The notes beneath the pieces are model-generated. The model was not told the DNA's origin. It saw nothing but the letters and a program-made list of their open reading frames with translations, and searched no databases. Source: Candidatus Babelota bacterium (GTDB lineage Bacteria; Babelota; Babeliae; Babelales; Babelaceae). Taken from it: DNA of 64,000 nucleotides. The first letter of the stretch is position 1; every line of letters starts with the position of its first letter. This document shows positions 12,441-49,057 of this stretch, piece by piece. The translations under genes were made by a program, and so were the position numbers. Where the stretch lies: the NCBI GenBank assembly GCA_023379005.1, contig JAMCTG010000002.1:14333-78332 (forward strand), in the 5' to 3' direction.

Positions 12441-12470
12441 TTGGCTAATTGAATTGTGTCATTGTATAAT
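12441..12470 (+). promoter_or_regulatory. candidate sigma70-like promoter of ANK array member 4
   Basis: TTGGCT (12441-12446), 18-nt spacer, TATAAT (12465-12470); duplicated copy of the region upstream of member 1. Confidence 0.4.
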
Positions 12471-12502
12471 TAATAAATTATTTTAATATAAAAGGCTAAA
12501 TA

Positions 12503-13252
12503 ATGTTAAAAATTTATTTGATTCTTAGTTTAACTATTTTTCCCAGTTTAATTCTATCAATGAATTCGGATAAAATGGAAATTATTCCAGTAGAAGTTGT
12601 TGATTCTAATAAATCAGCTGAAGAAATTTTTCAAAAATTATTTACTCGTGGTGCAGATACAAGGTTTGGAAGAGAACGAATTTTGAAAGAAATAGGAAAT
12701 GAACTATCTAAAACATTATCTAAACATCTCGAACGAAAGAAAAGATTGAATAATTCCAAAGAATTAGTAAAAATAATTTCTAATTTTGCTGGTAATAGTG
12801 ACGTCATTGAAGCTTTGAAAGAAATAAAAAGTGACTCAGGGGAGACATTAATGCATGCTGCTGCTTTGTATGGGGATGTTAACGCAATAAAAATTTTAAA
12901 AGAAGCGGGAGCTAATGTTAATGCAAGCGCTGAGGACGGAAGAACGCCGCTACACGATGCTGCATGGAAGAACAATATTGAAGCAGTCAAAATTTTACTA
13001 GAATATGGTGCTAAGGTTAATGTAGATGATGTTGTGAAAACTACACCATTACATCTTGCAGCTATAGCAAAAAGTAATCCTGCTACGATACTTGATACAG
13101 TACATATTCTATTGTGTGCTGGGGCTAATATTAATGCACGAAATATTAATAGAAATACTCCATTAGATTTAGCGTATGCGTCTTATGGTTCTGAAGAATT
13201 AAAACAATATTTGATTGATCGTGGTGCTAAAACGTGGCGAGATTTGCCATAA
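12503..13252 (+). CDS. exported ankyrin-repeat protein (array member 4, F-box-like segment deleted)
   Basis: 249 aa; leader ...FPSLILS/M; aligns with members 1-3 but lacks the FPxEIKLEILAQSF block (MEIIPVEVV-DSNKSAEE); ANK repeats; tail RGAKTWRDLP. Confidence 0.8.
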   Translation: MLKIYLILSLTIFPSLILSMNSDKMEIIPVEVVDSNKSAEEIFQKLFTRGADTRFGRERILKEIGNELSKTLSKHLERKKRLNNSKELVKIISNFAGNSDVIEALKEIKSDSGETLMHAAALYGDVNAIKILKEAGANVNASAEDGRTPLHDAAWKNNIEAVKILLEYGAKVNVDDVVKTTPLHLAAIAKSNPATILDTVHILLCAGANINARNINRNTPLDLAYASYGSEELKQYLIDRGAKTWRDLP

Positions 13253-25378: not shown

Positions 25379-26239
25379 ATGTTCAAAAAATTAGTTGTTT
25401 CAATTTTACTTTCAAACCTTATTTTTAATTCTTATTCAATGGAAAGAAATGATATCGTCGAGTTACCACGTGATTACGATATTTGCCCTGTCCCAGATAA
25501 TAATCTCCCTGTTGCATTTGTAGGTTTTAATACTCCAGCTGAAACACAAATTGTCATTAAAAATAAAAGTTTGGAAGATCTCAGAACAATACTAAAAAAT
25601 ATAAAACAAAGAGGTTCATTTTATGACTTTGAACTTGTTCAATTGGCAAAATTTAATCCGGATGATCTTGGCAGAGAAATGTTCTTTTTTTTTAATAGTA
25701 AATGCGTAATAACTGCGTTAATTCAGTCTGGTGCAAATGTTAATTTAAGAGATGAAAATCAAAATACTCCTTTACACCTTTCCTTATCAGTAGCATCCGA
25801 CCGTTTTGGGGAAAATTATGATGTTGTATCAAAATATCTAATTTTTTATAAAGCAGATGTTAATGCCGAAAACGGTATTCGTACTACCCCTTTGCATATT
25901 GCTACATCAAGAAATGATCGGGATATTACGAAATTATTGTTGGCTGCAAAAGCAAACGTAAATGTTAGAAACAATGTTGACGCTACTCCTCTTCAAATTT
26001 CAATTAAGAATCAAAATGCCGCAATAGTTGAGATTCTTATTAAGGCTGGAGCAGATATTAATGCAAAAGACAAATTTGGTAGAACTCCTCTAGATTATGC
26101 AGAAGTGTTTGCAGGTGATTCAATTATAAAAATATTAAAGGAAAAAGGAGCTAAGCACGGAGAAGGTTTAATAACTAGAGATCTAGAAAACGAAGAAAAC
26201 CTAAAACTTGATGAATCTTATTTAAAAAAATATGGATGA
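25379..26239 (+). CDS. exported ankyrin-repeat protein
   Basis: 286 aa; AAGGAG SD; leader ...IFNSYS/M; ANK repeats (NQNTPLHLSL..., RTTPLHIATSRNDRDITKLLLAAKANVNVRN, DATPLQISIKNQNAAIVEILIKAGADINAKD, GRTPLDYA). Confidence 0.85.
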   Translation: MFKKLVVSILLSNLIFNSYSMERNDIVELPRDYDICPVPDNNLPVAFVGFNTPAETQIVIKNKSLEDLRTILKNIKQRGSFYDFELVQLAKFNPDDLGREMFFFFNSKCVITALIQSGANVNLRDENQNTPLHLSLSVASDRFGENYDVVSKYLIFYKADVNAENGIRTTPLHIATSRNDRDITKLLLAAKANVNVRNNVDATPLQISIKNQNAAIVEILIKAGADINAKDKFGRTPLDYAEVFAGDSIIKILKEKGAKHGEGLITRDLENEENLKLDESYLKKYG

Positions 26240-27344: not shown

Positions 27345-28601
27345 ATGAAAATAACCAAAATTTTAGCTAGAGAAATTTATGATTCTCGTGGTTGGCCTAC
27401 CGTGCAATGCGAAATAATTTTAAATAACCAATTTTCGGTTAAATCTAGTGTGCCTTCAGGAATATCAAAGGGGCCTTATGAAGCAATTGAATTACGAGAT
27501 GGTGGTAAACGTTTAAGTGGTCAAGGCGTTTTAAAAGCAATTGAAAATATTGAATTATTTTTAGCTCCGCAATTTTTGTCAAAAGAACCAAATGGTTTAG
27601 AAATGGATATGAAAATTTTGGCAGCAGATTCGACTCCAGACAAATCTAAGCTTGGAGCAAATGCAACTTTAGCTTTAAGTATGGCATTATACAAAGCTCA
27701 AGCATTTTCTGAAAATGTTGAACTTTATGAACTTATTGCTTGGGTTTTTGGTTCAGAAACTGTTTCATTGCCATTTCCTATGTTTAATTTAATCAATGGT
27801 GGTTTACATTCTAATAATAATTTAATTATTCAAGAATTTATGATCGTACCGATTGGTCTTTCCAACTTTAGAGCATCAATGGAAGTTGCGGTGAATGTAT
27901 ACCATGAATTGCAAAATATATTAAAAAAAATGAATCGCAATTTTGCAATTGGTGATGAAGGAGGAATTGCCTGTGGAATAGAAGACGATCTTGAAGCTTT
28001 AGAACTTTTGCAGAAAGCAATTGATACGGTTGTAAAAAATAGTGGTAGTAAATGTGTTATTGCTTTAGATATTTCTGCTGAGAGATTATATAATGCTTCA
28101 AAAAAAATCTATAATTGGGGTGGTGATAAATTATCTTCTGAAGAATTAATGTATGTTTATTTAAATTTATTAGAAAAATATCCTATTTATTCATTAGAAG
28201 ATCCATTTGCAAGTAATGATTTAGAATCTTGGGCAAAATTAAATAAAATAGCTGATGGCAAAATACAAATTGTTGGTGACGATATTTTTGCAACCAATAT
28301 GGCGCGAATAGTAAAAGGTCTTGAACAAAAGGCTGCAAATGCAACGATTGTAAAACCTAATCAGATAGGTACGATAACTGAAACTTTACAAACAATAAAA
28401 ATGTGCAAAGAAGTTGGGGTAAATACAATCGTTTCACATAGATCTGGAGAAACTGAAGACAATTTTATAGCAGATTTAGCTGTCGGAGCAAGTGCCGGCC
28501 AAATTAAAGCAGGTGGATGTGCTCGCGGTGAACGAATAGCCAAATATAATCGTTTACTTACAATTGAAGATAAATTAGCTCTTCATTTGCTTAATACTTG
28601 A
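27345..28601 (+). CDS. eno: enolase (phosphopyruvate hydratase)
   Basis: MKITKILAREIYDSRGWPTVQCEI..., IGDEGG, VGDDIF, KPNQIGTITET, SHRSGETED enolase signatures; start set at the ATG at 27345. Confidence 0.92.
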   Translation: MKITKILAREIYDSRGWPTVQCEIILNNQFSVKSSVPSGISKGPYEAIELRDGGKRLSGQGVLKAIENIELFLAPQFLSKEPNGLEMDMKILAADSTPDKSKLGANATLALSMALYKAQAFSENVELYELIAWVFGSETVSLPFPMFNLINGGLHSNNNLIIQEFMIVPIGLSNFRASMEVAVNVYHELQNILKKMNRNFAIGDEGGIACGIEDDLEALELLQKAIDTVVKNSGSKCVIALDISAERLYNASKKIYNWGGDKLSSEELMYVYLNLLEKYPIYSLEDPFASNDLESWAKLNKIADGKIQIVGDDIFATNMARIVKGLEQKAANATIVKPNQIGTITETLQTIKMCKEVGVNTIVSHRSGETEDNFIADLAVGASAGQIKAGGCARGERIAKYNRLLTIEDKLALHLLNT

Positions 28602-31112
28602 AAAAGGATCATCTTCCATCGCTATCAATTCTTTAACGCGTTCTTTTACGGGTATAGCGGCAGGCTTCCTTTTTGCTATTAAAGGAGGTTCTGGTATAAT
28701 TTTTTCTTCCTTCACAGTACATCCAAATTCAGAACGCTTTGCTTGTCTAGACCCAGTTGTTTTCCTAATATCTTCTCTAAAATGTTTTGGCTTAATTTCT
28801 GAATTTTTAGCATCATTCAAGTAACCATTTATAATGTCGCGATCTTGGCCATTATTAAAGAATAAATGAGTAATAGGATCGCGGTTGTTATTCAAAATAT
28901 CTGAATTATCAAGATCTTTATCAGAACTTCTAATTTTGTCTGTAGTATAACGGTCCATGCCTTTTCTTAATTTTGGATCTACAATTGTTGGACAAATAAA
29001 TACAACAAGATTATTTTTCACCACAGCCGTTTCAGTTTTACTAAATAACCAACCGATAATCGGAATTTGCCCTAAAATTGGGGTTTGTGTTCTTACTTCT
29101 TGTTCTGTATCTTGCATTAATCCGCCTATGGCTAATACGTTTCCACTTCCAAGATTAGCATTTGTCGTTACACTTCGAGTTCTTCTTGTAAAGTTTGTAG
29201 GATTAGCTGATTCATATTCGTCGATATTAATATCTATTTTTAAATTTAATCTATCTAGCGAACTTATTCTTGGCAAAACAGTTACTTGTATAGAAGCTGG
29301 AACGTCAACTTGTTTGATCGTAATTGTACCACCAGTTGGTGTTCCTTCCGCGTTACCTGTGGCACGTCTTATTGTGACCGATTCAACACTTGCTTTTTGG
29401 TTATTTGTCGTTACAAAAAAAGGATGAGACAAAACTTTAGTATTCAAATTTTCTTTTAAAATTTGTAATAATCCCCAAATTCCACTTCCATTATTATCAT
29501 TGAAAGCAAATATTAAAGATCCTGCACTTACATTTGGATTTGCAAGAATATTAGAAAGTGTAGCCGATGTTGCTACAGGAGCTAATAAATCTGTTGCTAA
29601 TGTTACTGGCTGAGGTGCTGGTGGTGCAGTGGTTATTGATCCTCCATAAACTGTGTTGACGTCAGTAATATGTGAAGCTAAGAAATTTGCTGTATTACCA
29701 CAATCTAATAATCCACCTTTATTTCTAACTGTACCAGCAATTAAATCATCATTTTCTTTTGTAATGTCTAAAATTAAAACTTCAAGAATAACTTGTGGTT
29801 GTGGTTTGTCTAATTTTTGAACTAATTCTTTAATTCTTAAGAAATCACTTTCTCTTGCAGCAATAATTAACCTATTTCCGCCCTGATAAACCTGTCCTTT
29901 TTGTGCTTCAGCCGGACCACCTGCAAGTTGAGTTCCTGTAACGGGCTCTGCTTCTCTTCTAGGTTTTGCAGCTTCAGGCTGAATTATAACACCCTCAAAA
30001 TATCTTTCAGGACCGCCAGCAGCTTCTTTAACCACTTGTTCTTGTCCTGTTCCAATGCTAACAATTCTTTGTAAAACTTTTGCAAATTCATCAGCATCGA
30101 GATATTGAAGATTAATATAATGCAAGATTGATTTTCCAGTTTCTGGAGCGACGTCAATATATTCAGCAATGAATTCTTTAATGCGTTGTACTGCCGTGTC
30201 TTTTCCAATAAGAATTAATCTGTTTAATCTTCCATAAGAAAAAACGCCTGTTCCGGAAGTAAAAAATAAATTACTTTCTGTTTTAGGCCCACTTCTTAAC
30301 GGAAAACGTGAATCTTGAGTTGGAGGAATTAATTCTTTAAATAATTTTACTATTGTATCTGCATTTGTATAAAAAAGCGGGATAACTTCTACCGCTTCTC
30401 TATATCCAGTATTATCAAGGGCTACAACTATTTTCATTGCACTTGCTATATTATTAGCATTGTCTGAGATAATTACTGCATTTGAACGAGGATCATATAA
30501 AAAAATACCTTCAGGTGTTAATATGTCCTTTAACATTGTATTTAAAGGATCTGCCGTATCCTTATTTTCTGGAACACGAATATTTTTTAAATAATATACG
30601 TATCGAATTTTTTGTTCAGTTGCAGGAATATTTTCAGGAGATACGTTAATAAAAAGAGGCATAGGTTCTCTTGAAACATTTGGATCTGTTTTTACAATTG
30701 AAAAAATTCCAGTTTCATCAACAGTTAAACTATAACCAGATAATGTTAAAAAAGTTAGAAGAAATTCCCAAGCTTTGTCTAAACTTATTTTTTCTGGATA
30801 GTTAAATGTAATTTTTTGGTTTATAGCTTGCGCACCTTGTGGCAAAATAATATTTAAATCTTTTTTTTCAGCAATCAAATTTATAATATTTATCAGATTT
30901 TCATCTGTAAAAGAAAAATCTATTAATATTTCTTTTCTTTTTCTTCTTTTTTTTGGTTTTCTATTTGTTTCGTTTTCAATAAGATTTTTGATTTTTAAGT
31001 CGGGCAAATTTTCTGCAATTCCAGAAATAACTGGCTTTTCCTCATTAGATTGAGAAAATAATAAAGAGCTGTCATATAAAAATATCACAAATAAAAGTAT
31101 AAATTTGATCAT
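28575..31112 (-). CDS. secretin A (GspD/PilQ family)
   Basis: 845 aa; leader ...SLLFS/Q; N0-like FSFTDENLINIINLIAEKKDLNIIL...ISLDKAWEFLLTFLTLSGY, N-domains, secretin core VLAIGGLMQDTEQEVRTQTPILGQIPIIGWLFS...LVVFICPTIV; C-terminal extension of about 130 aa; ATGA overlap with the upstream gene. Confidence 0.88.
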   Translation of the reverse strand: MIKFILLFVIFLYDSSLLFSQSNEEKPVISGIAENLPDLKIKNLIENETNRKPKKRRKRKEILIDFSFTDENLINIINLIAEKKDLNIILPQGAQAINQKITFNYPEKISLDKAWEFLLTFLTLSGYSLTVDETGIFSIVKTDPNVSREPMPLFINVSPENIPATEQKIRYVYYLKNIRVPENKDTADPLNTMLKDILTPEGIFLYDPRSNAVIISDNANNIASAMKIVVALDNTGYREAVEVIPLFYTNADTIVKLFKELIPPTQDSRFPLRSGPKTESNLFFTSGTGVFSYGRLNRLILIGKDTAVQRIKEFIAEYIDVAPETGKSILHYINLQYLDADEFAKVLQRIVSIGTGQEQVVKEAAGGPERYFEGVIIQPEAAKPRREAEPVTGTQLAGGPAEAQKGQVYQGGNRLIIAARESDFLRIKELVQKLDKPQPQVILEVLILDITKENDDLIAGTVRNKGGLLDCGNTANFLASHITDVNTVYGGSITTAPPAPQPVTLATDLLAPVATSATLSNILANPNVSAGSLIFAFNDNNGSGIWGLLQILKENLNTKVLSHPFFVTTNNQKASVESVTIRRATGNAEGTPTGGTITIKQVDVPASIQVTVLPRISSLDRLNLKIDINIDEYESANPTNFTRRTRSVTTNANLGSGNVLAIGGLMQDTEQEVRTQTPILGQIPIIGWLFSKTETAVVKNNLVVFICPTIVDPKLRKGMDRYTTDKIRSSDKDLDNSDILNNNRDPITHLFFNNGQDRDIINGYLNDAKNSEIKPKHFREDIRKTTGSRQAKRSEFGCTVKEEKIIPEPPLIAKRKPAAIPVKERVKELIAMEDDPFSSIKQMKS

Positions 31113-31666
31113 AATGTTGACTCTTTAGGTTTTAAAGTTGCAATTACTAAAGTCACATCAACTACATTCTTTTTAGGAACTTTTGTTATTATCAATTCCT
31201 TTGTATAAACTCTTTCATTTTGGTCTATTTTATACAAAAGATTACAAAGTTGCTGCATATTTAAATTTATAAAGCTAGAATCTAATTTTATTTCTGTATA
31301 ATCTTCATTTAAATCTTCTTCTAGAGGTTCTGGCTCTTTAGAAGTATTTGTACCTAAATCCAACTCTCTAATTAGATTTGCCATAAATTGTGCGATCTTA
31401 AAATTTTTGTCCTGCGCCAGTAGTTCATCAACTTCTCTTTTTTGTGCCTGAATTGATTCATACTCTTCTAAAATTTCTTTTACCTGTCTTCGTTGCTCAT
31501 TTATAGTTTTCAATTTTCTCAACAAGAAATTTGTATTACTATTTTGTCTCCAAATTAATAATCCTATCAACGTTAAAAATACAAGATTAAAAATTAATAA
31601 ATATTGATAAAATTGTCTTTTATCTAAATTTATTATTGTATCTTTTAATTTTGCAAAAGTTGCCAT
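31109..31666 (-). CDS. PilO/GspM-like bitopic inner-membrane assembly protein
   Basis: 185 aa; short cytoplasmic N-terminus, one TM (YLLIFNLVFLTLIGLLIW), a coiled segment, then a periplasmic domain; sits between a PilM/N-like gene and a secretin. Confidence 0.5.
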   Translation of the reverse strand: MATFAKLKDTIINLDKRQFYQYLLIFNLVFLTLIGLLIWRQNSNTNFLLRKLKTINEQRRQVKEILEEYESIQAQKREVDELLAQDKNFKIAQFMANLIRELDLGTNTSKEPEPLEEDLNEDYTEIKLDSSFINLNMQQLCNLLYKIDQNERVYTKELIITKVPKKNVVDVTLVIATLKPKESTL

Positions 31667-31675
31667 TTACGTACC

Positions 31676-33301
31676 CTAGCTTTCTTTATTTACCGTGATA
31701 GTAATATTAAAATTAGGCGTTTCCATTCTTGGGACATTATAAAAAGGTCCACTTTTTAATTCTTGTTCAAATATTGTTAATTCAGGAAAACCTTTTACTG
31801 ATCCTTCTAAATCTATTTTTGTTTCATTATCTACATTATAAATTCTAAGTTTTTTTAGCTGCAATCCTATTCCATCACGATCAATTCTTGAACTCAATTC
31901 TTGTAAATATTTCAAAAATGAATATCTATTTTTTGAAGATAACGCAAACCAAATGCTTTCTTCTTTTGCAATTTCAGTTTTTGATACATCAATAGTATCC
32001 TTTAGTGTATTTCTCTTTAATCTTTTTTTGTCTAATGCAAGTCGTCTATTCAATGCAGCAATCGCTTGCTTTTCAGATGCTTCAATTTCGTTTGTTAATC
32101 TTCTCGAATTTAAAAAACCATTTACAATAATAGCTATAAAAATGCACAGTAATAAAATTCCTGCAAATATTAATTGTTTATTTAAAAGAGAGGTTTGTAC
32201 TTTTAAGGAACGTTCTACATAAAGATTAAAATTTTCAGTCAAATCAGATTCTAATGCAGCTGCTAATGATGGTAAAAATGTGTTGGGAATTGTATTTTCG
32301 ACCTTAATGATAAGATTTCCATTATGGACCAATTTGTTTACATTAAATTTTTCAGTTTGAACATGTAATTTTTCTTGCATTAACTCTGGAATTCCATTTA
32401 TTTCAGAAAGGAACCCAGTCAATATAATTTTTGAAACATCATTTGTATCTTTAGTTTTTTCTTTATAAGCAATAAAAGTAAGATGAATTTCATTTAAAAT
32501 TTCTTCACATTCTTGCAAAATTGCTTGTCTTAGTTTTTCATGATCATTTTGTTCTGTTCCAAAACGTGAAATACGTTCAAAAACTTCTACAACATCCATT
32601 GAAAGTTTTGCAGACACTTTTTTAACAAGAGAATAAAAACCTTTTGGAATGACTCTTATGTATTTAATTTGTTTGTCTAAAATTAAAGCAATTCCGGTAG
32701 AATACATGTCAGAAACTATTAAAGCATTTAGCGGTTTTTCTAAGTATTTTGGATTATATTTTAATAGTCCTGCTAGTTCGATTATATCGACTGTAATTTT
32801 ATCAATTTTGATTTGCGCTGCTTCTATAATTGCTAAATTCTCTGCGATAACATCTTTTTTTACTATAACTACTAAGACATCAGATTTTTTTTCTGCCGGA
32901 TATTCTTTTGTGATTATGCAATCTATTACAGCTTGATCAAGTGTAAACGGTAATTGGCTTTCAATTTCAAACGGAACAATTTGTTTAATTTTGTTAAGAC
33001 CAATTATAGGCAATGTTAAATACAAAAATATTGCATTATTGCACGACAAACTTAAGTTTATTGCGTCATATTTAATTTTTTGTAAAAGTATTTTTAAAGC
33101 AGAAGAAGCTCTTTCTTGAAAAGGTATTTCAGTTTCTGGAGCAATAGTTTGTTCAATAATTTTTTCGATTGTTCTTTTATTGCCGCTGAACTGTACAACA
33201 GTGGCACGCACATTATTTTTACTAATTTCTATTCCAACTACTTTTTTACCAAAAATGTAATAGGAACCAATTTTTTCAGGTATGAAAATATTTTTTAACA
33301 T
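31676..33301 (-). CDS. PilM-PilN fusion-like / GspL-like assembly protein
   Basis: 541 aa; N-terminal actin-like PilM pattern (GKKVVGIEISKNNVRATVVQF...), one TM (LIFAGILLLCIFIAIIVNGFL) near residue 375, periplasmic C-terminal domain; overlaps the secretin B stop by 7 nt. Confidence 0.6.
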   Translation of the reverse strand: MLKNIFIPEKIGSYYIFGKKVVGIEISKNNVRATVVQFSGNKRTIEKIIEQTIAPETEIPFQERASSALKILLQKIKYDAINLSLSCNNAIFLYLTLPIIGLNKIKQIVPFEIESQLPFTLDQAVIDCIITKEYPAEKKSDVLVVIVKKDVIAENLAIIEAAQIKIDKITVDIIELAGLLKYNPKYLEKPLNALIVSDMYSTGIALILDKQIKYIRVIPKGFYSLVKKVSAKLSMDVVEVFERISRFGTEQNDHEKLRQAILQECEEILNEIHLTFIAYKEKTKDTNDVSKIILTGFLSEINGIPELMQEKLHVQTEKFNVNKLVHNGNLIIKVENTIPNTFLPSLAAALESDLTENFNLYVERSLKVQTSLLNKQLIFAGILLLCIFIAIIVNGFLNSRRLTNEIEASEKQAIAALNRRLALDKKRLKRNTLKDTIDVSKTEIAKEESIWFALSSKNRYSFLKYLQELSSRIDRDGIGLQLKKLRIYNVDNETKIDLEGSVKGFPELTIFEQELKSGPFYNVPRMETPNFNITITVNKES

Positions 33302-35811
33302 ACTAGTGCTTCCGGTGCTGGTTCTTCTTTTCCATTAATTAAATCACTAAGTCTTCTTTTTTTATTTGAATTTTTAATTTCAACTATTTTTTCGACGTGT
33401 TCAATTGGTACAGGAGCTGGAGTAGTTTCTGGTAATCGTTCTTGGTCTATTGGAGATGTACCTTCTTCTACAAAAAATCTTTCATCAAGATATCTACCTT
33501 TTTTGTTTGCAAATTTATCAAGCTCCGCTAACTCTTTATCTTTTGCAAATTGGTTACTATCTCTGAAGAACCATCTATAAATTGGGTCTCTTTGCTCATA
33601 TTTTCTACGCATACTGCGCAATAATGTTCTGCTTTCATTCATCTTGTCCGTCGTAAATTGTTCAGCAAATTCTTTTTGTGAAGGCATAATAATTTCTGGT
33701 GAAATTAAAATTAAAATACTACTTTTTGTTGCAATTTTTGTTTTGTCTTTAAATAACCAACCAATAATGGGGATGTCACCTAAAATGGGCCATTTGGTTT
33801 GTTCAGCAATTGTGCTAGTTCTTATTAATCCACCTAATGCAAGAACTTCATTATTTGCAACTAAAGCAGAAGTTGATACAGCTTTTTTGAGTCTGTTACC
33901 GCTAGTCGGGTCTGAATCTGTAAATTGTTCAAGAGTTACGTTTACATCTAAATAAACAGTACCATCATGATTAATTAAAGGAACAAGTGTTACTTTTAAA
34001 TTTGCAGGAAGATCTTCAATACTGTCTTGACTCGTGTTACCAACGACTTTAGCTGCTTGAACACGTCTTGTTTCACCTATAGATATTTGCGCAGGATATT
34101 TGTGTGTTGCGATCAAAAATGGATTTGCAACAATACTGACTTTTGTTATCGAATCTAAAATTCTAAGAAATCCTGCGACACCAAAAATATCATTTGCAAA
34201 TGATATTAATGTTGAACCAGCCTGCTGGCCAACTGCTAATGCAACCAAGTTGCCTAAAAGTCGTGTAGCTCCTGTTCCAGTTGGATTTTGAATTGCTGTT
34301 GAAATGCCTGTGTTTTGGAAATTAATATTTGGTATCCCAGTCCCACAACTAAAGCCTGGAACTTTGTCTCTCAATTGTGTACCAAGACTTTTTTGATTCG
34401 TAATATCCACATTTATTATCATAACTCTTATTGCAACTTGGGGTTGTTCAATATCTAATTCATTAATTAAATCTAATATTTTTTTAAAATCATCATAATC
34501 TGATTTTATAATTAAACGATTTCCTGATTTTTCTGGCGTAATTGAGACTTGTTTAAAATATTTTTCTCCTCCACGCACTCCTCCAACTTGGGCAGCAGGT
34601 GTTCCAGTTTGAAACTTTGTTGCTTCAGTTAAAATATTTGCAATCGTTTCAGCGTCAATAAATTTCAGTTGAATAATATTAAGTGGTGAGTAAGGAATAT
34701 CTAGTTCTTTATCTATTTTAGTTTTTATAAATTTTTCAACTCGGGCAATAGCTTCTCTGGTACCAAGGGCTATCAATGAATTGTTTTGTAAATAAGGAAT
34801 CAATCTTAGAGTTTCTGAAAAATAACTTACTGTTGGGGTTCTATGTGGAACAGGTCTCGGTCCATAAGGGGATTCAGGTGGACCTTTTTGAGTTAATGCT
34901 TTGTATAATTCTGCAACTTTATCTGCATCTGCATGTTTTAACCTTATAACCGATAACATTTCAGGCATAGTTGCTTTGTCGAGTTCTATAATGACTCTCA
35001 TTAAAGATTTAATATATCCTGCTTTGTCAGTGATTAAAATTGCTCGAAGATCTGGAAATTCAATTGTAGGTGAAGAAGTTGTACTACGCATTTGTTCTAA
35101 AACACTTTTAACTACAGGTATACTTGTGTTTTCAATGAAATATACATAACGAATTTTCATATCGTTATCCGGCAATAAATTTGGGTCAGTGCCGATATAA
35201 GTTGGAAGTGGAACTTTATTTGCCATTCCCCCGGTTTTGGGATCCGTATTTGTGATACGATAAACATTTTTTGCAGGGCCAGGAACTACAGCAAGTCCAG
35301 ACATATCTAAAAATGTTAAGAAAATATCCCAAACTTGTTTTTTTGTCATAGGCACATGGGATTTAAAAGTAATTTTATTTCCTAAAACATTTTTTCCGCC
35401 CGCAGGTGTAGGTTTAATTTCGTCGTCAGTAATAAATTGAATTTTATAATTTTTTTCAATGAATTGAACTAAATTTGAAAGATCTGCATCTTCAAAATAT
35501 AAAGTTAAAAATTCATTTTCTTCAGTAGTATCAAATGGCTTGGTGTAATCTGCCATGTATTGTTTAGAAGGGAAAGTTTCTTTTTTTGGAATTTCTTTTT
35601 TCTCTTCAAATTCTTGTTCTTCTTCTTTTTTAAGCTGAGCTAATTCTTGACCAATATCTTCTGGTTGAACTATTTTATGTTCAGTTTTTGATGGATCAAT
35701 AATGTCGGGAATAGAATTTATTTTTTTTGAATTAGCAACCTCTGCCGCATTCAAGTGCGTTAAAAATATCAAAAATATTATTAATGGAATTTGTTTTATA
35801 ATATTTTTCAT
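33295..35811 (-). CDS. gspD: secretin B (GspD family)
   Basis: 838 aa; leader; N0-like LYFEDADLSNLVQFIEKNYKIQFI...VWDIFLTFLDMSGL, secretin core VLALGGLIRTSTIAEQTKWPILGDIPIIGWLFKDKT...ILILISPEII; directly downstream of the GspC-like gene. Confidence 0.85.
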   Translation of the reverse strand: MKNIIKQIPLIIFLIFLTHLNAAEVANSKKINSIPDIIDPSKTEHKIVQPEDIGQELAQLKKEEEQEFEEKKEIPKKETFPSKQYMADYTKPFDTTEENEFLTLYFEDADLSNLVQFIEKNYKIQFITDDEIKPTPAGGKNVLGNKITFKSHVPMTKKQVWDIFLTFLDMSGLAVVPGPAKNVYRITNTDPKTGGMANKVPLPTYIGTDPNLLPDNDMKIRYVYFIENTSIPVVKSVLEQMRSTTSSPTIEFPDLRAILITDKAGYIKSLMRVIIELDKATMPEMLSVIRLKHADADKVAELYKALTQKGPPESPYGPRPVPHRTPTVSYFSETLRLIPYLQNNSLIALGTREAIARVEKFIKTKIDKELDIPYSPLNIIQLKFIDAETIANILTEATKFQTGTPAAQVGGVRGGEKYFKQVSITPEKSGNRLIIKSDYDDFKKILDLINELDIEQPQVAIRVMIINVDITNQKSLGTQLRDKVPGFSCGTGIPNINFQNTGISTAIQNPTGTGATRLLGNLVALAVGQQAGSTLISFANDIFGVAGFLRILDSITKVSIVANPFLIATHKYPAQISIGETRRVQAAKVVGNTSQDSIEDLPANLKVTLVPLINHDGTVYLDVNVTLEQFTDSDPTSGNRLKKAVSTSALVANNEVLALGGLIRTSTIAEQTKWPILGDIPIIGWLFKDKTKIATKSSILILISPEIIMPSQKEFAEQFTTDKMNESRTLLRSMRRKYEQRDPIYRWFFRDSNQFAKDKELAELDKFANKKGRYLDERFFVEEGTSPIDQERLPETTPAPVPIEHVEKIVEIKNSNKKRRLSDLINGKEEPAPEALVC

Positions 35812-35825
35812 TTTTTATTCCAGGT

Positions 35826-36974
35826 TTATTGCATATTTTTGAACAATCTTCCCTGAGAAGGTCTTGCTCCATGGTTCAACATAGCTTGTCTTTCATGTTG
35901 AGTAATATCCCTTATCAGAGGTTTAAAGGTCAACTGTTCATTCCTCAACATCTCTTTTTCTTTTTCTGTATCAATCATTTTTTTTATAACGCCATTTTTT
36001 TCTATGGTTGGTACAATTTCTTTTGTCTCTGTCTTTTGATCGGAAGATTTTTTCAAAAGTTGTAAATGGTATGTGATACTAGTTCTTTGGCCTAATCGAG
36101 CGAATTCAATTACAATCTTATCACCAACTGAAAGTTTTGTAACCTGGTTATAAACTTCAACACGGCTCTTAGTATCATTAATTCTCATTCCATTGATAGT
36201 TACAATAATGTCACCTGCTTGTAAACCAAGTGCGCTGCCGATAGATTGATTTGTCAATCTTCCAACTCTAACTCCAAGACTTTTACCTTTTCTAAATACA
36301 GTAGTTAAATCTAAAGCATCTATAAATTGAGCTAAGTTATTAATTCTTTCAGCAAAAGCATTTGGATCTACAATAAATTCAGTTGAAGAAATTGACTGTA
36401 TAACATTGGACCATGAACTTGAAGCAAGAGTATTAATTTCTGCCTGGGCATCAGTTTGATTTATAAATAATGATTCTTGTTGACCATTAGAGCGAATCAA
36501 AATTATTTTTTGGGGTAAAATTCTAAGTATGTAAGCATCTTCAATTTTATCATTTTGAGAATATAGTTTTTCTTCGTTAGTTTTTGTATTTTGTACAATT
36601 GCTTGTGCCATGCTTTCATTTGTTCCCATTATTATTCCCTTAAGTTTTAAAGCTAATGGCTCTAAAAATTGTGGTTTAGGAATTTCTTTTTCTTCAGGAA
36701 CAAATTTTGGAGTTGGAGGAACTGGGATTGGTGGAACTAAAGTTTTTACTTCTTCTTCAACAACTACAGGTTTTACATAAGTACCAAAAAGATCATCAGT
36801 AACTATTCTAGTGCAATCAACTTTTGCTGCTTCCTTTTTTATTTGTTTTGTGATAATTTCTGGTTCGATACGTGCACGTTTAGGAATTTGGACTTGTGAA
36901 AAAAATATAAAGACCAAGGTTGCCAAAAAAGTTGTCAGCAGAGAACTATTTAAAATCCACATTTGGCTTTGCAT
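35826..36974 (-). CDS. gspC: GspC-like protein (TM + HR/PilP-like domain + PDZ)
   Basis: 382 aa; N-terminal TM LLTTFLATLVFIFF; Pro-rich linker; LKLKGIIMGTNESMAQAIVQN...YILRILPQKIILI (HR-like); PDZ GVRVGRLTNQSIGSALGLQAGDIIVTINGMRIND. Confidence 0.65.
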   Translation of the reverse strand: MQSQMWILNSSLLTTFLATLVFIFFSQVQIPKRARIEPEIITKQIKKEAAKVDCTRIVTDDLFGTYVKPVVVEEEVKTLVPPIPVPPTPKFVPEEKEIPKPQFLEPLALKLKGIIMGTNESMAQAIVQNTKTNEEKLYSQNDKIEDAYILRILPQKIILIRSNGQQESLFINQTDAQAEINTLASSSWSNVIQSISSTEFIVDPNAFAERINNLAQFIDALDLTTVFRKGKSLGVRVGRLTNQSIGSALGLQAGDIIVTINGMRINDTKSRVEVYNQVTKLSVGDKIVIEFARLGQRTSITYHLQLLKKSSDQKTETKEIVPTIEKNGVIKKMIDTEKEKEMLRNEQLTFKPLIRDITQHERQAMLNHGARPSQGRLFKNMQ

Positions 36975-37078
36975 TTTTATTCCTTATCTAAACCCTCTTT
37001 CTAAATACTCTCCTCAAGTCATTTTTTTGTCAAGTTTGTCTGTTTATTTTTACAAAAATGCTTAGTTTAAATACTTTA

Positions 37079-37870
37079 TTATTGTGCGCCAGCCTCACGC
37101 AAAATTTTTTCGATGTTTTCAAATTTCTTATCAATGGAAAATTGTTTTCTTAAATTTCTTTGATATATTGCTACCTGCAATGGTGTGACATTAGTTTGGT
37201 TTAAATAATTTTTTGCGTTAACATCCGCGCCCAATTCTAGAAATTTTAAAACCAAATTTTCAAATCCTCGCTCAACAGCTATATGTAAAAGCGATCCTTT
37301 CAAATTTGAATGCGTTTTTATATTTATTTTGTTTAGATTAAACAATAATTTAAATACATATTCTTCTTCGATTTGCAAGACCCACATACACGGTGTCCAT
37401 CCGTGTTGACATTGCAAATTTATGTCTATCCCTTTGTTTAATAACATTATGATAACCAAATATTTTAATGTTTTATTTTTCCAGAGTATACGTGAGGCTA
37501 TATGTAAATAAGATTCTTGCTCAAAGTTTTGCAAATTAATATCAAGTTTTTTATTTTTCAAAAGTTCTTCAATTACTTGCAAATAAAAGGAATTAATCTC
37601 CGATTCTTCTTCTGCACATTTTCTAATTGCACATTCAAGAGCTGTCGTTCCACCTGTATTTTGAAAATTAATATATGGACAATTTTCTATAATTTTTTTG
37701 CATGCCTCAAAGTCTTTAAATCCTAATAATATATAACTATGAAGAACAGTATTGAAATTTTTATCCAGAAATTCTGGCTCCCTATTTTCCAAACTTTGTT
37801 TTATTAAACAATTCATTGAATTTGAATTAAAAATGGAAGTAGCCAAGAGAATAAAGATTGTTTTTTTCAT
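37079..37870 (-). CDS. exported ankyrin-repeat protein
   Basis: 263 aa; leader ...SIFNSNS/M; ANK repeats (FNTVLHSYIL..., GGTTALECAI..., ESYLHIAS..., GSLLHIAVERGFENLVLKFLELGADVNAKN, VTPLQVAI). Confidence 0.8.
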   Translation of the reverse strand: MKKTIFILLATSIFNSNSMNCLIKQSLENREPEFLDKNFNTVLHSYILLGFKDFEACKKIIENCPYINFQNTGGTTALECAIRKCAEEESEINSFYLQVIEELLKNKKLDINLQNFEQESYLHIASRILWKNKTLKYLVIIMLLNKGIDINLQCQHGWTPCMWVLQIEEEYVFKLLFNLNKINIKTHSNLKGSLLHIAVERGFENLVLKFLELGADVNAKNYLNQTNVTPLQVAIYQRNLRKQFSIDKKFENIEKILREAGAQ

Positions 37871-37891
37871 GATGTATTTTGTTTAAATGTT

Positions 37892-38209
37892 TTAGTCGTG
37901 ATAACCCAAAGAAGGCTTTAAATTTTTTGAATCAATATCAATGTATGTTGTTATAATATTTTTAAGTTTTATTACTTCTGCTCTTTTACCAGCTATAAAT
38001 AAAATATTTTTCTGTAGAGCTAAAATTACTAAAGATTCTAAATCTATTATGTAAATACTTACTGTCGCAGATTCTTTAATAAGGCTTGCAACATAATCAG
38101 AATCCACAAATTTAAGTTCTATGACTTCATTTATATTTGCATCACTTGAATGCTCCATACAATTAATAGAAATTAAGACAAATAAGCACATAAATAATAT
38201 TGATTTCAT
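37892..38209 (-). CDS. free-standing secretin N1-type (Secretin_N-like) domain mini-protein
   Basis: 105 aa; AAGGAG SD 7 nt upstream; leader MKSILFMCLFVLISINC/M; EVIELKFVDSDYVASLIKE...NILFIAGKRAEVIKLKNIITTYIDID parallels secretin A EVIPLFYTNADTIVKLFKE...NRLILIGKDTAVQRIKEFIAEYIDV. Confidence 0.55.
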   Translation of the reverse strand: MKSILFMCLFVLISINCMEHSSDANINEVIELKFVDSDYVASLIKESATVSIYIIDLESLVILALQKNILFIAGKRAEVIKLKNIITTYIDIDSKNLKPSLGYHD

Positions 38210-38213
38210 ATTT

Positions 38214-38705
38214 CTACTCCTTAATTGGATCTTCAGATAAATGTTCTAATTTTGAAATTAACAAATATTTTAATGCCTTATTGTGCCAATCGGAATTTCG
38301 TACTAAATCTAATGGTGTTTGTTCGCTTTTATCTTTCAAATTTACATTAATATCTTTATTATCCAAAAGTATCATTATCATTTTAAAATAAGAACTTTCA
38401 CCTGAATAAACTTTTAAACATGAACGAATTGCTAAATGTAATGGAGTTAATCCTTCATTATCCTGAACATTAATATTAATTCCTTGATTAATCAAATACT
38501 TAAATAAAATAATATTGGTTCTTACTATTGCCCAATGTAATGCCGTTCTAGAATTTTTATCAGTGTCATTAATCAGATTTATTTTATTTTCTAAATTAAA
38601 TCTGATTGTTTCTAAATTTCCATTTTTTGCATTTTCAAAAAAATCAAATTTCATGGCAAAAGAATTTAGATATAATGTGCTAAAAATAAAAAATATTTTT
38701 TTCAT
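38214..38705 (-). CDS. exported ankyrin-repeat protein
   Basis: 163 aa; leader ...LYLNSFA/M; ANK repeats (SRTALHWAIVRTNIILFKYLINQGININVQD, GLTPLHLAI..., EQTPLDLV). Confidence 0.8.
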   Translation of the reverse strand: MKKIFFIFSTLYLNSFAMKFDFFENAKNGNLETIRFNLENKINLINDTDKNSRTALHWAIVRTNIILFKYLINQGININVQDNEGLTPLHLAIRSCLKVYSGESSYFKMIMILLDNKDINVNLKDKSEQTPLDLVRNSDWHNKALKYLLISKLEHLSEDPIKE

Positions 38706-38723: not shown

Positions 38724-39134
38724 TTAATTTTCTGTTTGGGATTGTAATTTTTGATAAGTAAATTTTGGTGATGTTATTACTAGAATATTATTTTGAAAAT
38801 ACATAAAATATCCTTGCTTTATCATGAATGTGTAAACTCCATTCCATGCTTGGTCGATAGTTATCTTTTCAAGAAAATTAAATTTAACTTTCCAAGTTGG
38901 AATTAGTTCTTCTATATAAGTAATAATTCCAACCTTTGTGCATAATAATGAAAAAAAATCCAATAAATCTACATTATTAAGAGAAAATCCAATTAAAGTA
39001 TCTTGGTCTATTCCATTTAAATTTTCTTTTAATTCATCAAGTTGTTTTCTTGAATTAAGGTTTGCTATATCGTCTTGCATCGCAAATAAAAAAAGAAAAT
39101 TTAAAATGAAAAAGTTAAAAAAAACTTTTTTCAT
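38724..39134 (-). CDS. free-standing secretin N0-type domain mini-protein
   Basis: The ATG at 39134 forms an ATGA overlap with the moxR stop; leader MKKVFFNFFILNFLFLFA/M; LIGFSLNNVDLLDFFSLLCTKVGIITYIEE...KVKFNFLEKITIDQAWNGVYTFMIKQGYFMYFQNNILVITS aligns residue for residue with secretin A LIDFSFTDENLINIINLIAEKKDLNIILPQ...KITFNYPEKISLDKAWEFLLTFLTLSGYSLTVDETGIFSIV. Confidence 0.6.
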   Translation of the reverse strand: MKKVFFNFFILNFLFLFAMQDDIANLNSRKQLDELKENLNGIDQDTLIGFSLNNVDLLDFFSLLCTKVGIITYIEELIPTWKVKFNFLEKITIDQAWNGVYTFMIKQGYFMYFQNNILVITSPKFTYQKLQSQTEN

Positions 39135-40105
39135 GGGCAAGCAATTTTTTGTAAAATAGTTTTAATAATATGGTCTGAAGTAATATTTTCTGCTTCAGCT
39201 TCATAATTTAAAATTAATCTATGTCTTAAAATTGCAGGGCAAACAAATTTAACATCATCTGGGATTACAAAATTTCTTTTATTTAAAAATGCGTTTGCCT
39301 TTGCAGCATTGTGCAGAGCAATTGTAGCTCTTGGAGATACGCCATAGCTAATATATTTTTTTAAATTTGTAAGCCCAAAATTTTCTGGAGTTCTAGTTGC
39401 AAAAACTATATCAACAATATAATTGATTATTTTTTCATCAATATAAATCTGATTTACAATTTTTTGCGCATCAAATATTTCCGGTTTGTTTAAAACTTGT
39501 TTTATTTGTTCAAAGTCTAAATTTTTATGCAAAATTTCTCTCTCTTGCATAATGTTTGGATAACCAATAATCAGTTTGAACATAAATCTATCCACTTGTG
39601 CTTCGGGCAGTCTATATGTTCCTTCTTGTTCTAGTGGATTTTGTGTTGCAAAAACTAAAAATGGTTCTTCCAAAATATGTGTAGTTGAACCAATTGTTAC
39701 CTGATGTTCTTGCATTGCTTCTAAAAGTGCAGCCTGTACCTTTGCAGGCGCTCTATTAATTTCGTCAGCTAAAATTAAGTTAGCAAAAATTGGACCTTTT
39801 TTTGTTTCAAATTCTTGAGTTTTTGGATTATAAACAAGTGTACCAATTAAATCTGCCGGCAAAAGATCGGGCGTAAATTGAATGCGTTTAAATGAAAGAC
39901 CCATTGCTTTTGTAACTGCTTTTATTATTGTAGTTTTTGCAACTCCAGGAACACCTTCCAGTAAAATGTGTCCATTGCATAAAATAGCTAACAAAATAAA
40001 GTTGCATGTTTCAGTTTGCCCCACAACAATTTTATTAACTTCATTGGTTAATTGTTGGAAATTGTCACTAATTTTTTCAAGATAGTTTTGATCAATGGTA
40101 TTCAT
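39131..40105 (-). CDS. moxR: MoxR-family AAA+ ATPase
   Basis: VVGQTETCNFILLAILCNGHILLEGVPGVAKT (Walker A), ILADEINRAPAKVQAALLEAMQE (Walker B/sensor), FLVFATQNP; start set at MNTIDQ (40105), directly after the mlaF stop. Confidence 0.85.
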   Translation of the reverse strand: MNTIDQNYLEKISDNFQQLTNEVNKIVVGQTETCNFILLAILCNGHILLEGVPGVAKTTIIKAVTKAMGLSFKRIQFTPDLLPADLIGTLVYNPKTQEFETKKGPIFANLILADEINRAPAKVQAALLEAMQEHQVTIGSTTHILEEPFLVFATQNPLEQEGTYRLPEAQVDRFMFKLIIGYPNIMQEREILHKNLDFEQIKQVLNKPEIFDAQKIVNQIYIDEKIINYIVDIVFATRTPENFGLTNLKKYISYGVSPRATIALHNAAKANAFLNKRNFVIPDDVKFVCPAILRHRLILNYEAEAENITSDHIIKTILQKIACP

Positions 40106-40857
40106 ATTTTTTGACTTTCTGTTTGAATAGGTCCTACAGTTAAACCTCGAACAAATTGATAAATGTAAGGATTGTCTGATTGCCAAATAGTTGTAGCAGG
40201 TCCAAAATATCTAATTTTTCCCTGATACAATAGTGCAACATAATCAACATAATTGAAAACTTCAACATCATGAGATATTACAACTGACGTTATATTTAAA
40301 TTTTTTTGCATCGTGGACATTAGTTCATGAACAATTTTTGATGTTATCGGATCTAGACCCGATGTAGGTTCATCATACAAAATTATAGAAGGATTGTTAA
40401 TTAAAGTTCTTGCAATACCGACTCTTTTTTTCATTCCCCCAGAAAGTTCACTTGGATATTTATACAAAATATCTTCTGACAAATTAACCAAATTTAATTT
40501 ATTTTTAACTATTTCTAAAACTTCATTCTTATTTATGCCATCTTCCAATAAAGTAAGACCTACGTTTTCAAAAATATTTAAAGAATCTAAAAGAGCTGCA
40601 AATTGAAATACATAACCACATTTTTTAAAAACAAAATCTTTTTTATTTTCTTTTAATTTTGTAATATCTGTTCCATCAATAATAATTGAACCGGATGTTG
40701 GTTTTATAAGGCCCATAATTTGTTTTAAAAGAACAGATTTTCCTTCACCGGAACCACCAATTATGCACGTAATTTTACCCTTTGGAATTTTTAGATCAAT
40801 TCCATTAATGACAAAGCGATTATTAAATTCTTTTTTAAGATCAATTATTTCGATCAT
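40102..40857 (-). CDS. mlaF: MlaF-type ABC transporter ATP-binding protein
   Basis: 251 aa; Walker A GGSGEGKS, LSGGMKKRVGIARTL, ILYDEPTSGLDP; follows an MlaE-type permease. Confidence 0.8.
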   Translation of the reverse strand: MIEIIDLKKEFNNRFVINGIDLKIPKGKITCIIGGSGEGKSVLLKQIMGLIKPTSGSIIIDGTDITKLKENKKDFVFKKCGYVFQFAALLDSLNIFENVGLTLLEDGINKNEVLEIVKNKLNLVNLSEDILYKYPSELSGGMKKRVGIARTLINNPSIILYDEPTSGLDPITSKIVHELMSTMQKNLNITSVVISHDVEVFNYVDYVALLYQGKIRYFGPATTIWQSDNPYIYQFVRGLTVGPIQTESQKI

Positions 40858-48361: not shown

Positions 48362-49057
48362 ATGAATATAAAGAATTTTTTACTTATGAGTATGATATTA
48401 ACACAATTTAGTATTAAATCCGTATCTACACTACATGATTTGGCAGTCGCAATAGTTGGAAAGGATATTGATACAGTAAGACAAATATTGGATGACGGAT
48501 TTGATGTCAATTCTCAAAATGAAATTTCTGGTGATACACCAATCATTTTAACCATAAATGAGTTTAATGCTGCTAAAGCATTTGTCAATCGAGTAGAAAT
48601 AGAAAATTTTTATAAAGAAATTATAAAACTTTTACTTGATCGAGGCGCTGATCCTACGATAAAAAATCGTTATTACCAATCCGCAATTGATCTTGCAAAA
48701 AAGACACAAAATCAAGAATTAATAAAATTGATTGAAGAAGGTTCAAAGCTGCAACGACAAAAAAGAATTGCTGAGCAAAAGTCTAAAGAAATTTTTGACG
48801 CAATAGAAATATCAGATATAAATGCAATCAAAAAATTAGGAGAAAAGGTTTCATTTATTTATGTAAAAGATGAAAAAGGAAACAATCCTCTGCATAAAGC
48901 TGTATCTAAAGGAAATGAAGAAATAGTTGGTTTAATTTTAAAAATTCAGCCACAATTGGCAAGAATACCAAATAATCGAGGAGAAACTCCTATTGATCTT
49001 GCTGCAAATAGACCTAAGATTCTTGAAACACTGATCAAATTAGGTTATAAAAAATAA
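48362..49057 (+). CDS. ankyrin-repeat protein
   Basis: 231 aa; AAGGA SD; ANK repeats (GDTPIILTI..., QSAIDLAKKTQNQELIKLI, GNNPLHKAVSKGNEEIVGLILK, GETPIDLAA). Confidence 0.75.
   Translation: MNIKNFLLMSMILTQFSIKSVSTLHDLAVAIVGKDIDTVRQILDDGFDVNSQNEISGDTPIILTINEFNAAKAFVNRVEIENFYKEIIKLLLDRGADPTIKNRYYQSAIDLAKKTQNQELIKLIEEGSKLQRQKRIAEQKSKEIFDAIEISDINAIKKLGEKVSFIYVKDEKGNNPLHKAVSKGNEEIVGLILKIQPQLARIPNNRGETPIDLAANRPKILETLIKLGYKK

Follow-up and report, generated by a model that had tools for sequence, protein, structure and literature searches.

The window analysed here is a 64-kb stretch (64,000 nucleotides [nt]) of contig JAMCTG010000002.1 from a Candidatus Babelota bacterium, and all positions below refer to it. 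It is AT-rich (~29% GC) and typical of the Dependentiae (TM6) in its content, with many signal-peptide-bearing ankyrin-repeat genes and small-genome housekeeping genes. On its minus strand, positions 28575 to 36974 are occupied by five tightly packed open reading frames (ORFs), which are predicted to encode a GspC-like protein (C), a secretin (B), a PilM-PilN fusion protein (PilMN or MN), a PilO/GspM-fold protein (O), and a second secretin (A) (Table 1). As calculated from the coordinates, the junctions are a 14-nt gap (C/B), a 7-nt overlap (B/MN), a 9-nt gap (MN/O), and a 4-nt ATGA overlap (O/A), and the 3' end of the secretin A gene overlaps the convergent enolase gene by 27 nt. No minus-strand terminator-like sites were found between the five genes in a consensus scan. 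The five ORFs, their positions, and their tight coupling had been given in a preliminary description of the region, and all were confirmed from the sequence; the gene identities proposed there are also correct at the level of families, with the exception of the PilQ-type assignment of secretin A.

The spacer upstream of gspC contains a perfect TTGACA (37028 to 37033) and a Shine-Dalgarno-like AAGGA before the ATG, both read directly in the sequence, and is without a good -10 hexamer at the standard spacing. The promoter consensus scan did not flag this spacer; it returned 51 sites against 55 expected from shuffles and is uninformative in such AT-rich DNA.

Table 1. Genes, sequence elements, and upstream small ORFs of the secretin region
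Feature	Position	Strand	Description
GspC-like protein	35826..36974	-	382 amino acids (aa); N-terminal transmembrane helix, HR region, PDZ domain, charged C-terminal tail
Secretin B, predicted GspD type	33295..35811	-	838 aa; signal peptide, acidic/lysine-rich linker, N0, N1-N3, secretin core, conserved post-core segment, variable charged tail
Predicted PilM-PilN fusion, GspL equivalent	31676..33301	-	541 aa; PilM domain ~1-355, transmembrane plus coiled-coil helix ~362-421, periplasmic alpha/beta domain ~455-537
Predicted PilO/GspM-fold bitopic protein	31109..31666	-	185 aa; short cytoplasmic N terminus, transmembrane helix leading into coiled coil, C-terminal ferredoxin-like domain
Secretin A, predicted GspD-type paralog	28575..31112	-	845 aa; signal peptide, divergent N0, N1-N3 (N3 with A-specific insertion), core, conserved post-core segment, variable charged tail
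RDPITHLFF motif	28857..28883	-	Secretin A residues 744-752; located in sequence
RDPIYRWFF motif	33565..33591	-	Secretin B residues 741-749; located in sequence
A-specific Pro/Ala/charged insertion	29898..29981	-	QPEAAKPRREAEPVTGTQLAGGPAEAQK; in N3 domain of secretin A; located in sequence
Spacer upstream of gspC	36975..37078	-	104 nt; weak candidate for the operon promoter region
Small secreted N1/N2-type ring-building-domain-like protein	37892..38209	-	105 aa; hhalign probability 85%, E 6.6e-6, against secretin A residues 240-325
Small secreted N0-only protein	38724..39140	-	136-138 aa; BLASTP 33% identity to secretin A N0, E 3e-7; hhalign probability 91%, against A residues 59-141

Both secretins are predicted to be GspD-type proteins, and neither to be of the PilQ type. 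The Pfam secretin domain (PF00263; cut-off, 27.5 bits) was matched with 107.8 bits (E, 5.9e-31) in A and 111.3 bits (4.7e-32) in B, and the Secretin_N domain (cut-off, 28.2 bits) was matched with 85 and 64 bits, respectively, three such matches being present in A. Both proteins carry N0 to N3 domains and the secretin core, and the universal secretin motifs (GG and PxLGxIPxxGxxF) are kept in both. The GspD-type N0 domain (PF21305) was matched above the cut-off by B (3.5e-9) and below it by A (1.4e-3); the N0 domain of A is consistently further from the GspD N0 model than that of B, and few A orthologues were flagged by the Pfam N0 model. We were not able to identify an AMIN domain by Pfam in either secretin. 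Among the profile hidden Markov models (HMMs), GspD (TIGR02517) was the best-scoring one for both (A, 262 bits; B, 233 bits), yet below its equivalog cut-off of 351, and PilQ (TIGR02515) reached 152 bits with A and 130 bits with B, below its own cut-off of 284 and below the GspD scores. The best PDB sequence matches were also GspD entries, ahead of PilQ (5zdh, 5wq7, and 5wln for A; 6i1x, 5zdh, and 5wq7, all of type II secretion systems [T2SSs], for B). Solved GspD structures match B in one stretch (residues ~135 to 715) and A in two, which correspond to N0 to N2 (66 to 355) and N3 plus the core (~410 to 713). In addition, B gave a colinear tblastn match to a plasmid GspD and EtpD over residues 97 to 696 (~24% identity, ~120 bits). 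The homologues of secretin A fall into at least 274 clusters; the 120 clusters listed carry secretin domains, and the source names given among them are all Dependentiae, Babeliaceae, or GspD.

A and B are 28% identical over 713 aa (262 bits), and B scores higher against A than against proteobacterial GspD or EtpD (~120 bits). All-against-all comparison gave two clean orthogroups, with 309 to 933 bits within and 196 to 323 bits between them. A phylogeny of the secretins against GspD and PilQ clades, as proposed in the preliminary description, was constructed as a small neighbor-joining (NJ) tree of 13 Dependentiae secretins, E. coli GspD, EtpD, and HofQ (PilQ family), Aeromonas ExeD, Sulfitobacter GspD, and YscC as the root (583 well-aligned columns; 100 bootstraps). 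The A clade was supported at 89%, the B clade at 98%, and the two together at 99%, apart from GspD, HofQ, and YscC, which speaks against A being a PilQ. Within the limits of this small tree, A and B are sister paralogs that split before the radiation of the sampled Dependentiae. A recent and trivial tandem duplication that left one copy degenerate, as had been considered for this locus, is excluded by the 28% identity, by the two clean orthogroups, and by the full length of both paralogs wherever a contig covers them in the 17 related loci described below (15 loci and two with three secretins). Secretin A had also been read as the Q of a type IV pilus pilMNO-Q module. The HMM and PDB rankings, the domain content (N0 to N3), the sister relationship to B in the NJ tree, and a lineage-specific C-terminal motif common to A and B rule this out.

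In B, the Pfam secretin domain stops at residue 708 of 838, and in A at residue 712 of 845, leaving ~130 residues in each, so that both secretins have the long C-terminal extensions reported earlier. The motif RDPI[T/Y][H/R][L/W]FF, said to be common to the two extensions, was found in both (Table 1). It belongs to a post-core segment that A and B have in common, YTxDK...(R/K)DP(I/V)xxxFF, beyond which the tails are charged and variable. P746 and F752 (A numbering) are invariant across eight A and B sequences, and the motif is found in both paralogs of most relatives; the pattern was unmatched in three A-type sequences, namely, L018_A1, L018_A2, and L002_A, the last of which has the variant VEPIQHLFF. 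No match to the C-terminal tail was found among PDB sequences. Since both copies retain the universal secretin motifs and the common C-terminal motif, both look functional. The Pro/Ala-rich insertion reported in A and not in B is likewise present; each of the four A orthologues in the alignment carries an insertion at this N3 site, the sequence differing among them, and no B orthologue has one.

The other three proteins resemble components of the inner-membrane alignment subcomplexes of T2SSs and type IV pili. The GspC-like protein matched the T2SSC domain (PF11356) over residues 12 to 170 (1.3e-9; 38.5 bits against a Pfam cut-off of 27), and PDZ_6 and PDZ_2 at residues ~234 to 301 with 23.3 and 23.7 bits, below the Pfam cut-off of 27. 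Its scores with the GspC models were also below the cut-offs (NF041515 GspC_delta, 4e-27 and 95.7 bits against 150; TIGR01713, 60.3 against 101.6). GspC-like orthologues hold the same position in every related locus long enough to show it. The HR domain of GspC is homologous to that of PilP, and the GspC-like protein is the PilP equivalent, which would link the inner-membrane platform to the secretin N0 domain. The preliminary description had stressed that the operon has no PilP; none was found, but the statement is misleading because of this homology.

The 541-aa protein matched PilM_2 (PF11104; 8.8e-10, 38.5 bits against a cut-off of 27) and, below the cut-off, the pilM model TIGR01175 (4.5e-15, 55.5 bits against 133) and the Amuc_1101 family (6e-11, far below the family cut-off). 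Matches to the GspL models did not reach the cut-offs (T2SSL, PF05134, 0.0026, 17.6 bits against 25.5; TIGR01709, 14.4 against 65). The AlphaFold2 (AF2) model built with 39 homologues (predicted local distance difference test score [pLDDT], 88) has a complete PilM-type actin-like domain, a transmembrane/coiled-coil helix of ~60 residues, and a small C-terminal alpha/beta domain. In Foldseek searches, it matched the PilM structures 5eou and 2ych with E values of 1e-22 to 1e-20 and TM-scores of 0.76 to 0.81 (1e-22 to Pseudomonas aeruginosa PilM; 0.81 to Thermus PilM), and the EpsL/GspL cytoplasmic domains reached only 2e-9. Because the PilM fold is followed by a transmembrane helix and a periplasmic domain, the protein is predicted to be a PilM-PilN fusion with the topology of GspL. 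This PilMN family has 970 representatives at E values of ≤1e-30 in a library of 1.84 billion proteins; the best 150 matches all cover essentially the full profile, and nearly all of them are ~500 to 570 aa long.

For the 185-aa protein, no Pfam or NCBIfam match was found. Its AF2 model (pLDDT, 82) consists of a transmembrane helix that leads into a coiled coil and a ferredoxin-like domain, and the best Foldseek match was PilO 2rjz (E, 7.8e-4; probability, 1.0), followed by the PilO chain of 3jc8, 5uvr, EpsM 1uv7, Amuc_1100, and PulM 7ze0. The sequences DKNFKI and NERVYTKEL are conserved in nine homologues. We therefore predict a PilO/GspM-fold protein; in the Foldseek comparisons, both it and the PilM-like protein fit type IV pilus folds better than GspL/GspM folds. 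PilM-PilN corresponds to GspL and PilO to GspM, and by these homologies and that of GspC to PilP, exactly one full alignment set (C, MN, and O) is present in the operon. The operon is one alignment subcomplex plus two channels and not a T2SS half joined to a PilP-less pilus half.

Related loci were collected from Babeliales and Dependentiae metagenome-assembled genomes; 15 of them (3 genome and 12 metagenome loci) were compared by script, and two loci with three secretins bring the total to 17. Where names are given, the relatives of PilMN and secretin A are all from Dependentiae (TM6)/Babeliales. The 15 loci and the two with three secretins keep the gene order C-B-MN-O-A followed by the convergent enolase gene as far as their contigs extend. 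The proteins of the 15 loci are 28% to 61% identical to those of the window, and across these lineages both secretin paralogs are full length wherever covered and their core motifs are invariant. The B/MN and MN/O junctions are mostly overlaps of 1 to 4 nt; only these two junctions gave reliable values, as the start-codon heuristic overestimates the C/B and O/A gaps where the secretin N termini vary. Upstream of the operon, the relatives have the genes TPI-SecG-MlaE-MlaF-MoxR. The conserved order, together with the full-length PilMN family, indicates that the operon is old and under selection as a unit.

Two contigs, spotted by paired secretin A matches on one contig, carry the genes for GspC, B, PilMN, O, A1, and A2 and then the convergent enolase gene (L018, 1876 to 12349; L017, 2 to 9701). 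A1 and A2 are 47% to 56% identical, and the third secretin gene appears from these sequences to have arisen by tandem duplication of the A-type gene within one sublineage, the other operon genes having stayed single copy.

A complete T2SS or type IVa pilus locus was not found in the window or in the flanks of the relatives. The absence of an ATPase, a platform protein, and a pilin from the window, stated in the preliminary description, was confirmed: no GspE/PilB, GspF/PilC, or prepilin was found by a Pfam search of ORFs of ≥120 aa or by a scan of ORFs of ≥50 aa for Walker A and prepilin motifs. Prepilin peptidase is likewise absent from the window, and neither it nor any GspE/PilB, GspF/PilC, or (pseudo)pilin was found in the 17 relatives up to 10 kb from the operon; in Babela and TM6SC1, the published tables list such genes elsewhere in the genome.

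Part of this picture is already known. In the portions of the TM6 genome papers considered here (Yeoh et al., Pagnier et al., and Deeg et al.), T2SS and type IV pilus assembly genes are reported, together with the idea of a gspD/pulD-derived channel for the pilus genes. Yeoh et al. (2016; PMC4776705) describe two gspD genes in all TM6 genomes and no pilQ, and they call it an open question whether one gspD may substitute for pilQ. According to Pagnier et al. (2015; PMC4378268), the T2SS is the only secretion system found in Babela, and the COG table (Additional file 11) gives for Babela/TM6SC1 3/2 PulD, 2/2 PulE-PilB, 2/2 PulF, 3/0 PulG, 1/1 PulO, 1/1 PilM, and 0/0 PilT, with PulF shown as an isolated gene. 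For Chromulinavorax, Deeg et al. (2019) report signal peptides on 44% of the coding sequences, including 78% of the ankyrin proteins, and no lipopolysaccharide (LPS) genes. Thus, two gspD genes in TM6 are known and the operon has been partly flagged in the literature. In the passages of these papers considered here, we did not find described the single conserved C-D-MN-O-D operon with its ratio of one platform to two channels, the age and sisterhood of the paralogs, the common tail motif, the A-specific N3 insertion, or the three-secretin variants.

From the gene identities, folds, paralogy, phylum-wide synteny, and coupling described above, we infer that the region is, on balance, probably a conserved Dependentiae operon that encodes the outer-membrane and alignment components of a chimeric machine of the T2SS/type IV pilus class (type IV filament), with two separate homo-oligomeric channels on a shared platform and the motors elsewhere. 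Each secretin would build its own homo-oligomeric outer-membrane channel, both channels would dock through their N0-N3 rings onto one GspC/PilMN/PilO inner-membrane platform, and each would probably work with one of the two GspE/PilB-GspF/PilC sets that Dependentiae have. One channel could export folded effectors delivered by Sec, such as the ankyrin proteins with signal peptides, and the other could pass a fibre or a second class of cargo, in the role that PilQ has elsewhere. The motor ATPases, platform proteins, prepilin peptidase, and pseudopilins would be encoded elsewhere in the genome. Of the arrangements raised in the preliminary description, the evidence agrees best with two machines that share one alignment subcomplex (two PulE, two PulF, three or two PulD, and one PilM in Babela/TM6SC1). 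Separate homo-oligomeric channels are favoured because other Dependentiae have two PulE and two PulF with a single PilM, because the secretin gene duplicates further without change to the rest of the operon, and because all solved secretin structures that we know of are homo-oligomers; the PDB matches of A and B are deposited as single-sequence 12- to 15-mers. A tandem-duplicated third secretin fits interchangeable channels better than a fixed hetero-oligomer.

Several observations weigh against separate channels on one platform. The separate rings and the binding of GspC by either secretin are predictions from sequence, and translation of both from one operon, with the ATGA overlap leading into A, is just as compatible with co-assembly. 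Gene counts were taken from two other Dependentiae genomes, Babela and TM6SC1, and not from this one, and the number of secretins (two or three) does not track the two motors one to one. The NJ tree has few outgroups, all of them proteobacterial, and compositional bias in AT-rich genes may inflate the grouping of A with B. All equivalog NCBIfam cut-offs were missed (GspD, 233 and 262 against 351; GspC, 96 against 150; PilM, 55 against 133). Finally, no pili were seen in Babela micrographs (PMC4776705).

The presence of only one GspC, one PilMN, and one PilO in the operon could also mean that A and B co-assemble in a single machine, either as a mixed secretin ring or as two stacked rings in one conduit, the operon coupling setting their ratio. 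In every related locus that extends far enough, both genes are found in one operon and in an unchanged order, they are translationally coupled (4-nt overlap into A and 7-nt overlap out of B), the proteins have the same N0-N3 plus core architecture, and their common C-terminal motif could mediate subunit stapling. Furthermore, the divergent N0 domain of A (1.4e-3, against 3.5e-9 for B) could mean that only B contacts GspC. We nevertheless consider co-assembly rather unlikely: the solved secretin structures known to us are all homo-oligomers, the 28% identity and the paralog-specific insertions make a shared barrel interface less likely, and the third-secretin lineages and the two PulE/PulF sets fit alternative channels better. 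A more specific composite conduit (mixed ring or coaxial rings), in which B docks on GspC while A, through its divergent N0 domain and N3 insertion, contacts the periplasmic domains of PilMN and PilO or B itself, seems if anything slightly less probable. If true, it would be the first hetero-oligomeric secretin and might be an adaptation to the LPS-less outer membrane of Dependentiae and to a very large load of Sec-dependent effectors.

The gene order resembles gspCD and then pilMNO(P)Q (comparable sets in E. coli are gspCDE and hofMNOPQ), which would also suit an evolutionary chimera in which a T2SS gspC-gspD pair lies beside type IV pilus genes pilM-N-O-(P)-Q and serves a machine of its own, the secretin in the Q position being either a true PilQ or a GspD replacement. 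The 541-aa protein is far closer to PilM than to the EpsL cytoplasmic domain, the 185-aa protein was best matched to PilO, and Yeoh et al. suggested that a gspD copy substitutes for pilQ (PMC4776705). Such an origin in two machines is still unlikely. By HMM, PDB match, and domain content, secretin A is of the GspD type, and it is sister to B in the tree; it cannot be the original PilQ, and only the replacement version survives. Given how the gene order echoes the two gene sets, an ancestral PilQ may plausibly have been replaced by a GspD duplicate. PilM-PilN and PilO are homologous to GspL and GspM, so a PilM-like sequence is by itself no sign of a separate pilus module, no PilP or AMIN domains were found, and PilT is missing from the published gene tables. 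That one secretin is instead dispensable, degenerating, or a non-channel protein (for example, a scaffold or a pilotin-like helper) is very improbable. The N0 domain of A is divergent, A has a variable low-complexity insertion and tail, and secretin fragments can persist, as shown by the two small upstream ORFs with N0-only and N2-like products. However, the full length and invariant core motifs of both paralogs across lineages that are 28% to 61% identical speak against decay, as do the genome size (~1 Mb), since useless genes of ~2.5 kb would be lost from such reduced genomes, and the at least 270 A-type clusters, of which those listed retain secretin domains.

The operon can be compared with three groups of known systems. 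As in the proteobacterial T2SSs (E. coli Gsp/Etp, Vibrio Eps, and Klebsiella Pul), a GspC with transmembrane helix, HR region, and PDZ domain stands beside a GspD-type secretin with N0 to N3 and core, a bitopic actin-like protein with a small bitopic partner would link to the ATPase, and the probable function is the export of folded, Sec-delivered proteins. Unlike those systems, the Dependentiae operon has two (or three) secretin paralogs, gspE to gspK are not in the locus, a PilM fold fused to a PilN-like part takes the place of GspL and a PilO-like protein without HMM match that of GspM, the secretins have long C-terminal tails with the lineage-specific RDPIxxWFF and no PDB match, and none of the equivalog cut-offs was reached. 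With the type IVa pilus PilMNOPQ (Pseudomonas, Myxococcus, and Thermus; HofMNOPQ in E. coli), it has in common the order of M/N, O, and secretin and the folds of PilM (TM-scores, 0.76 to 0.81) and PilO, which were the best matches. The predicted Dependentiae protein is a PilM-PilN fusion, whereas in the pilus PilM has a separate PilN whose N-terminal peptide binds it; in addition, the PilP lipoprotein is absent, with the GspC HR domain standing in for it, the secretins are GspD type with four N domains and no AMIN domain, and the published tables are without PilT. The third group comprises the Amuc_1098-1102 cluster of Akkermansia and the atypical type IV filament systems (chimeric or "generic") known from Chlamydiae and Bacteroidetes, which are non-proteobacterial T2SS/pilus mixes that fail the standard models (PMC6668835). 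Both secretins match the Amuc_1098 family (B, 7.1e-13; A, 5.6e-15) and the PilM-like protein matches Amuc_1101 (6e-11), all far below the family cut-offs, and the 185-aa model resembles Amuc_1100. The searches made here gave no sign of a second secretin paralog in those systems; the type IV filament survey of Denise et al. (2019), in which the chlamydial and Bacteroidetes T2SSs are called chimeric or "generic," mentions neither TM6 nor multi-secretin loci (PMC6668835).

Upstream of gspC, the window has two small ORFs that are related to secretin domains (Table 1). The BLASTP match of the 105-aa N1/N2-like protein to a secretin was not significant. Both mini-proteins are absent from the related loci and thus lineage specific, and their ORFs are interleaved with two ankyrin-repeat genes, the whole being inserted between MoxR and gspC in this lineage. 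Remnants of a third full secretin were ruled out as their origin, as no other secretin-derived sequence was found around them in the window, and each has its own signal-like N terminus, which makes simple pseudogene fragments unlikely. They may act as free ring or adaptor domains in the periplasm, or they may be what is left of a partial duplication.

A MoxR-type AAA+ ATPase gene (39131 to 40186, minus strand) is the next conserved neighbor. It lies on the same strand directly upstream of gspC in most relatives (L003, 4906 to 5892; L005 to L007, L012, L013, L016, and L018), at a spacing of 127 nt in L003 and of ~45 to 150 nt in the other loci as measured between called genes or stop-to-stop frames, and is preceded by MlaE-MlaF; variable effector-like genes lie between MoxR and gspC in the window and in L002. 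From this arrangement, MoxR may be part of the system or only syntenic.

At least eight ankyrin-repeat genes are present in the 64 kb, in the regions 10031 to 13252 (plus), 25379 to 26239 (plus), 37079 to 38705 (minus), and 48362 to 49057 (plus). Two of them, read in the sequence (37079 to 37870 and 38214 to 38705), have signal-peptide-like N termini. This ankyrin gene load fits the effector-rich, Sec-dependent export lifestyle reported for Dependentiae. At 42889 to 45831 (plus), a 980-aa beta-1,3-glucanase with a GH81 catalytic domain and two CBM56 modules is encoded; it may be secreted to degrade host walls and may be among the cargo of the secretin system. Five tandem paralogous ORFs at 12 to 2713 (minus; 164 to 196 aa) encode proteins with signal-like N termini, two of which match HSP20/alpha-crystallin (2.5e-10 and 5.8e-13). 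They were considered as pilins, which is ruled out by these features and by the absence of a prepilin motif from them; from the sequence matches, the array would be an exported small-heat-shock-like family. Two further ORFs at 3192 to 7226 (minus; 418 and 918 aa) also have signal-like N termini and gave no Pfam match, and the 918-aa product is rich in Gly, Asn, and Ser.

The Dependentiae, a widespread phylum, live as obligate intracellular parasites of protists. In the published genome analyses, no secretion system besides the T2SS/type IV pilus-like one is reported for them. Since it is the sole secretion system detected and up to 44% of the proteins have signal peptides, the operon probably encodes the main route by which Dependentiae deliver effectors across the outer membrane. 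We know of no T2SS or type IV pilus studied by experiment in which one alignment subcomplex is permanently tied to two or three secretins of such ancient divergence. The operon offers a natural test of how secretins choose their inner-membrane partners and of whether one platform serves several channels or secretins mix. As a state intermediate between the type IVa pilus and the T2SS, or a chimera of the two, outside the Proteobacteria, it is also relevant to the diversification of these machines.

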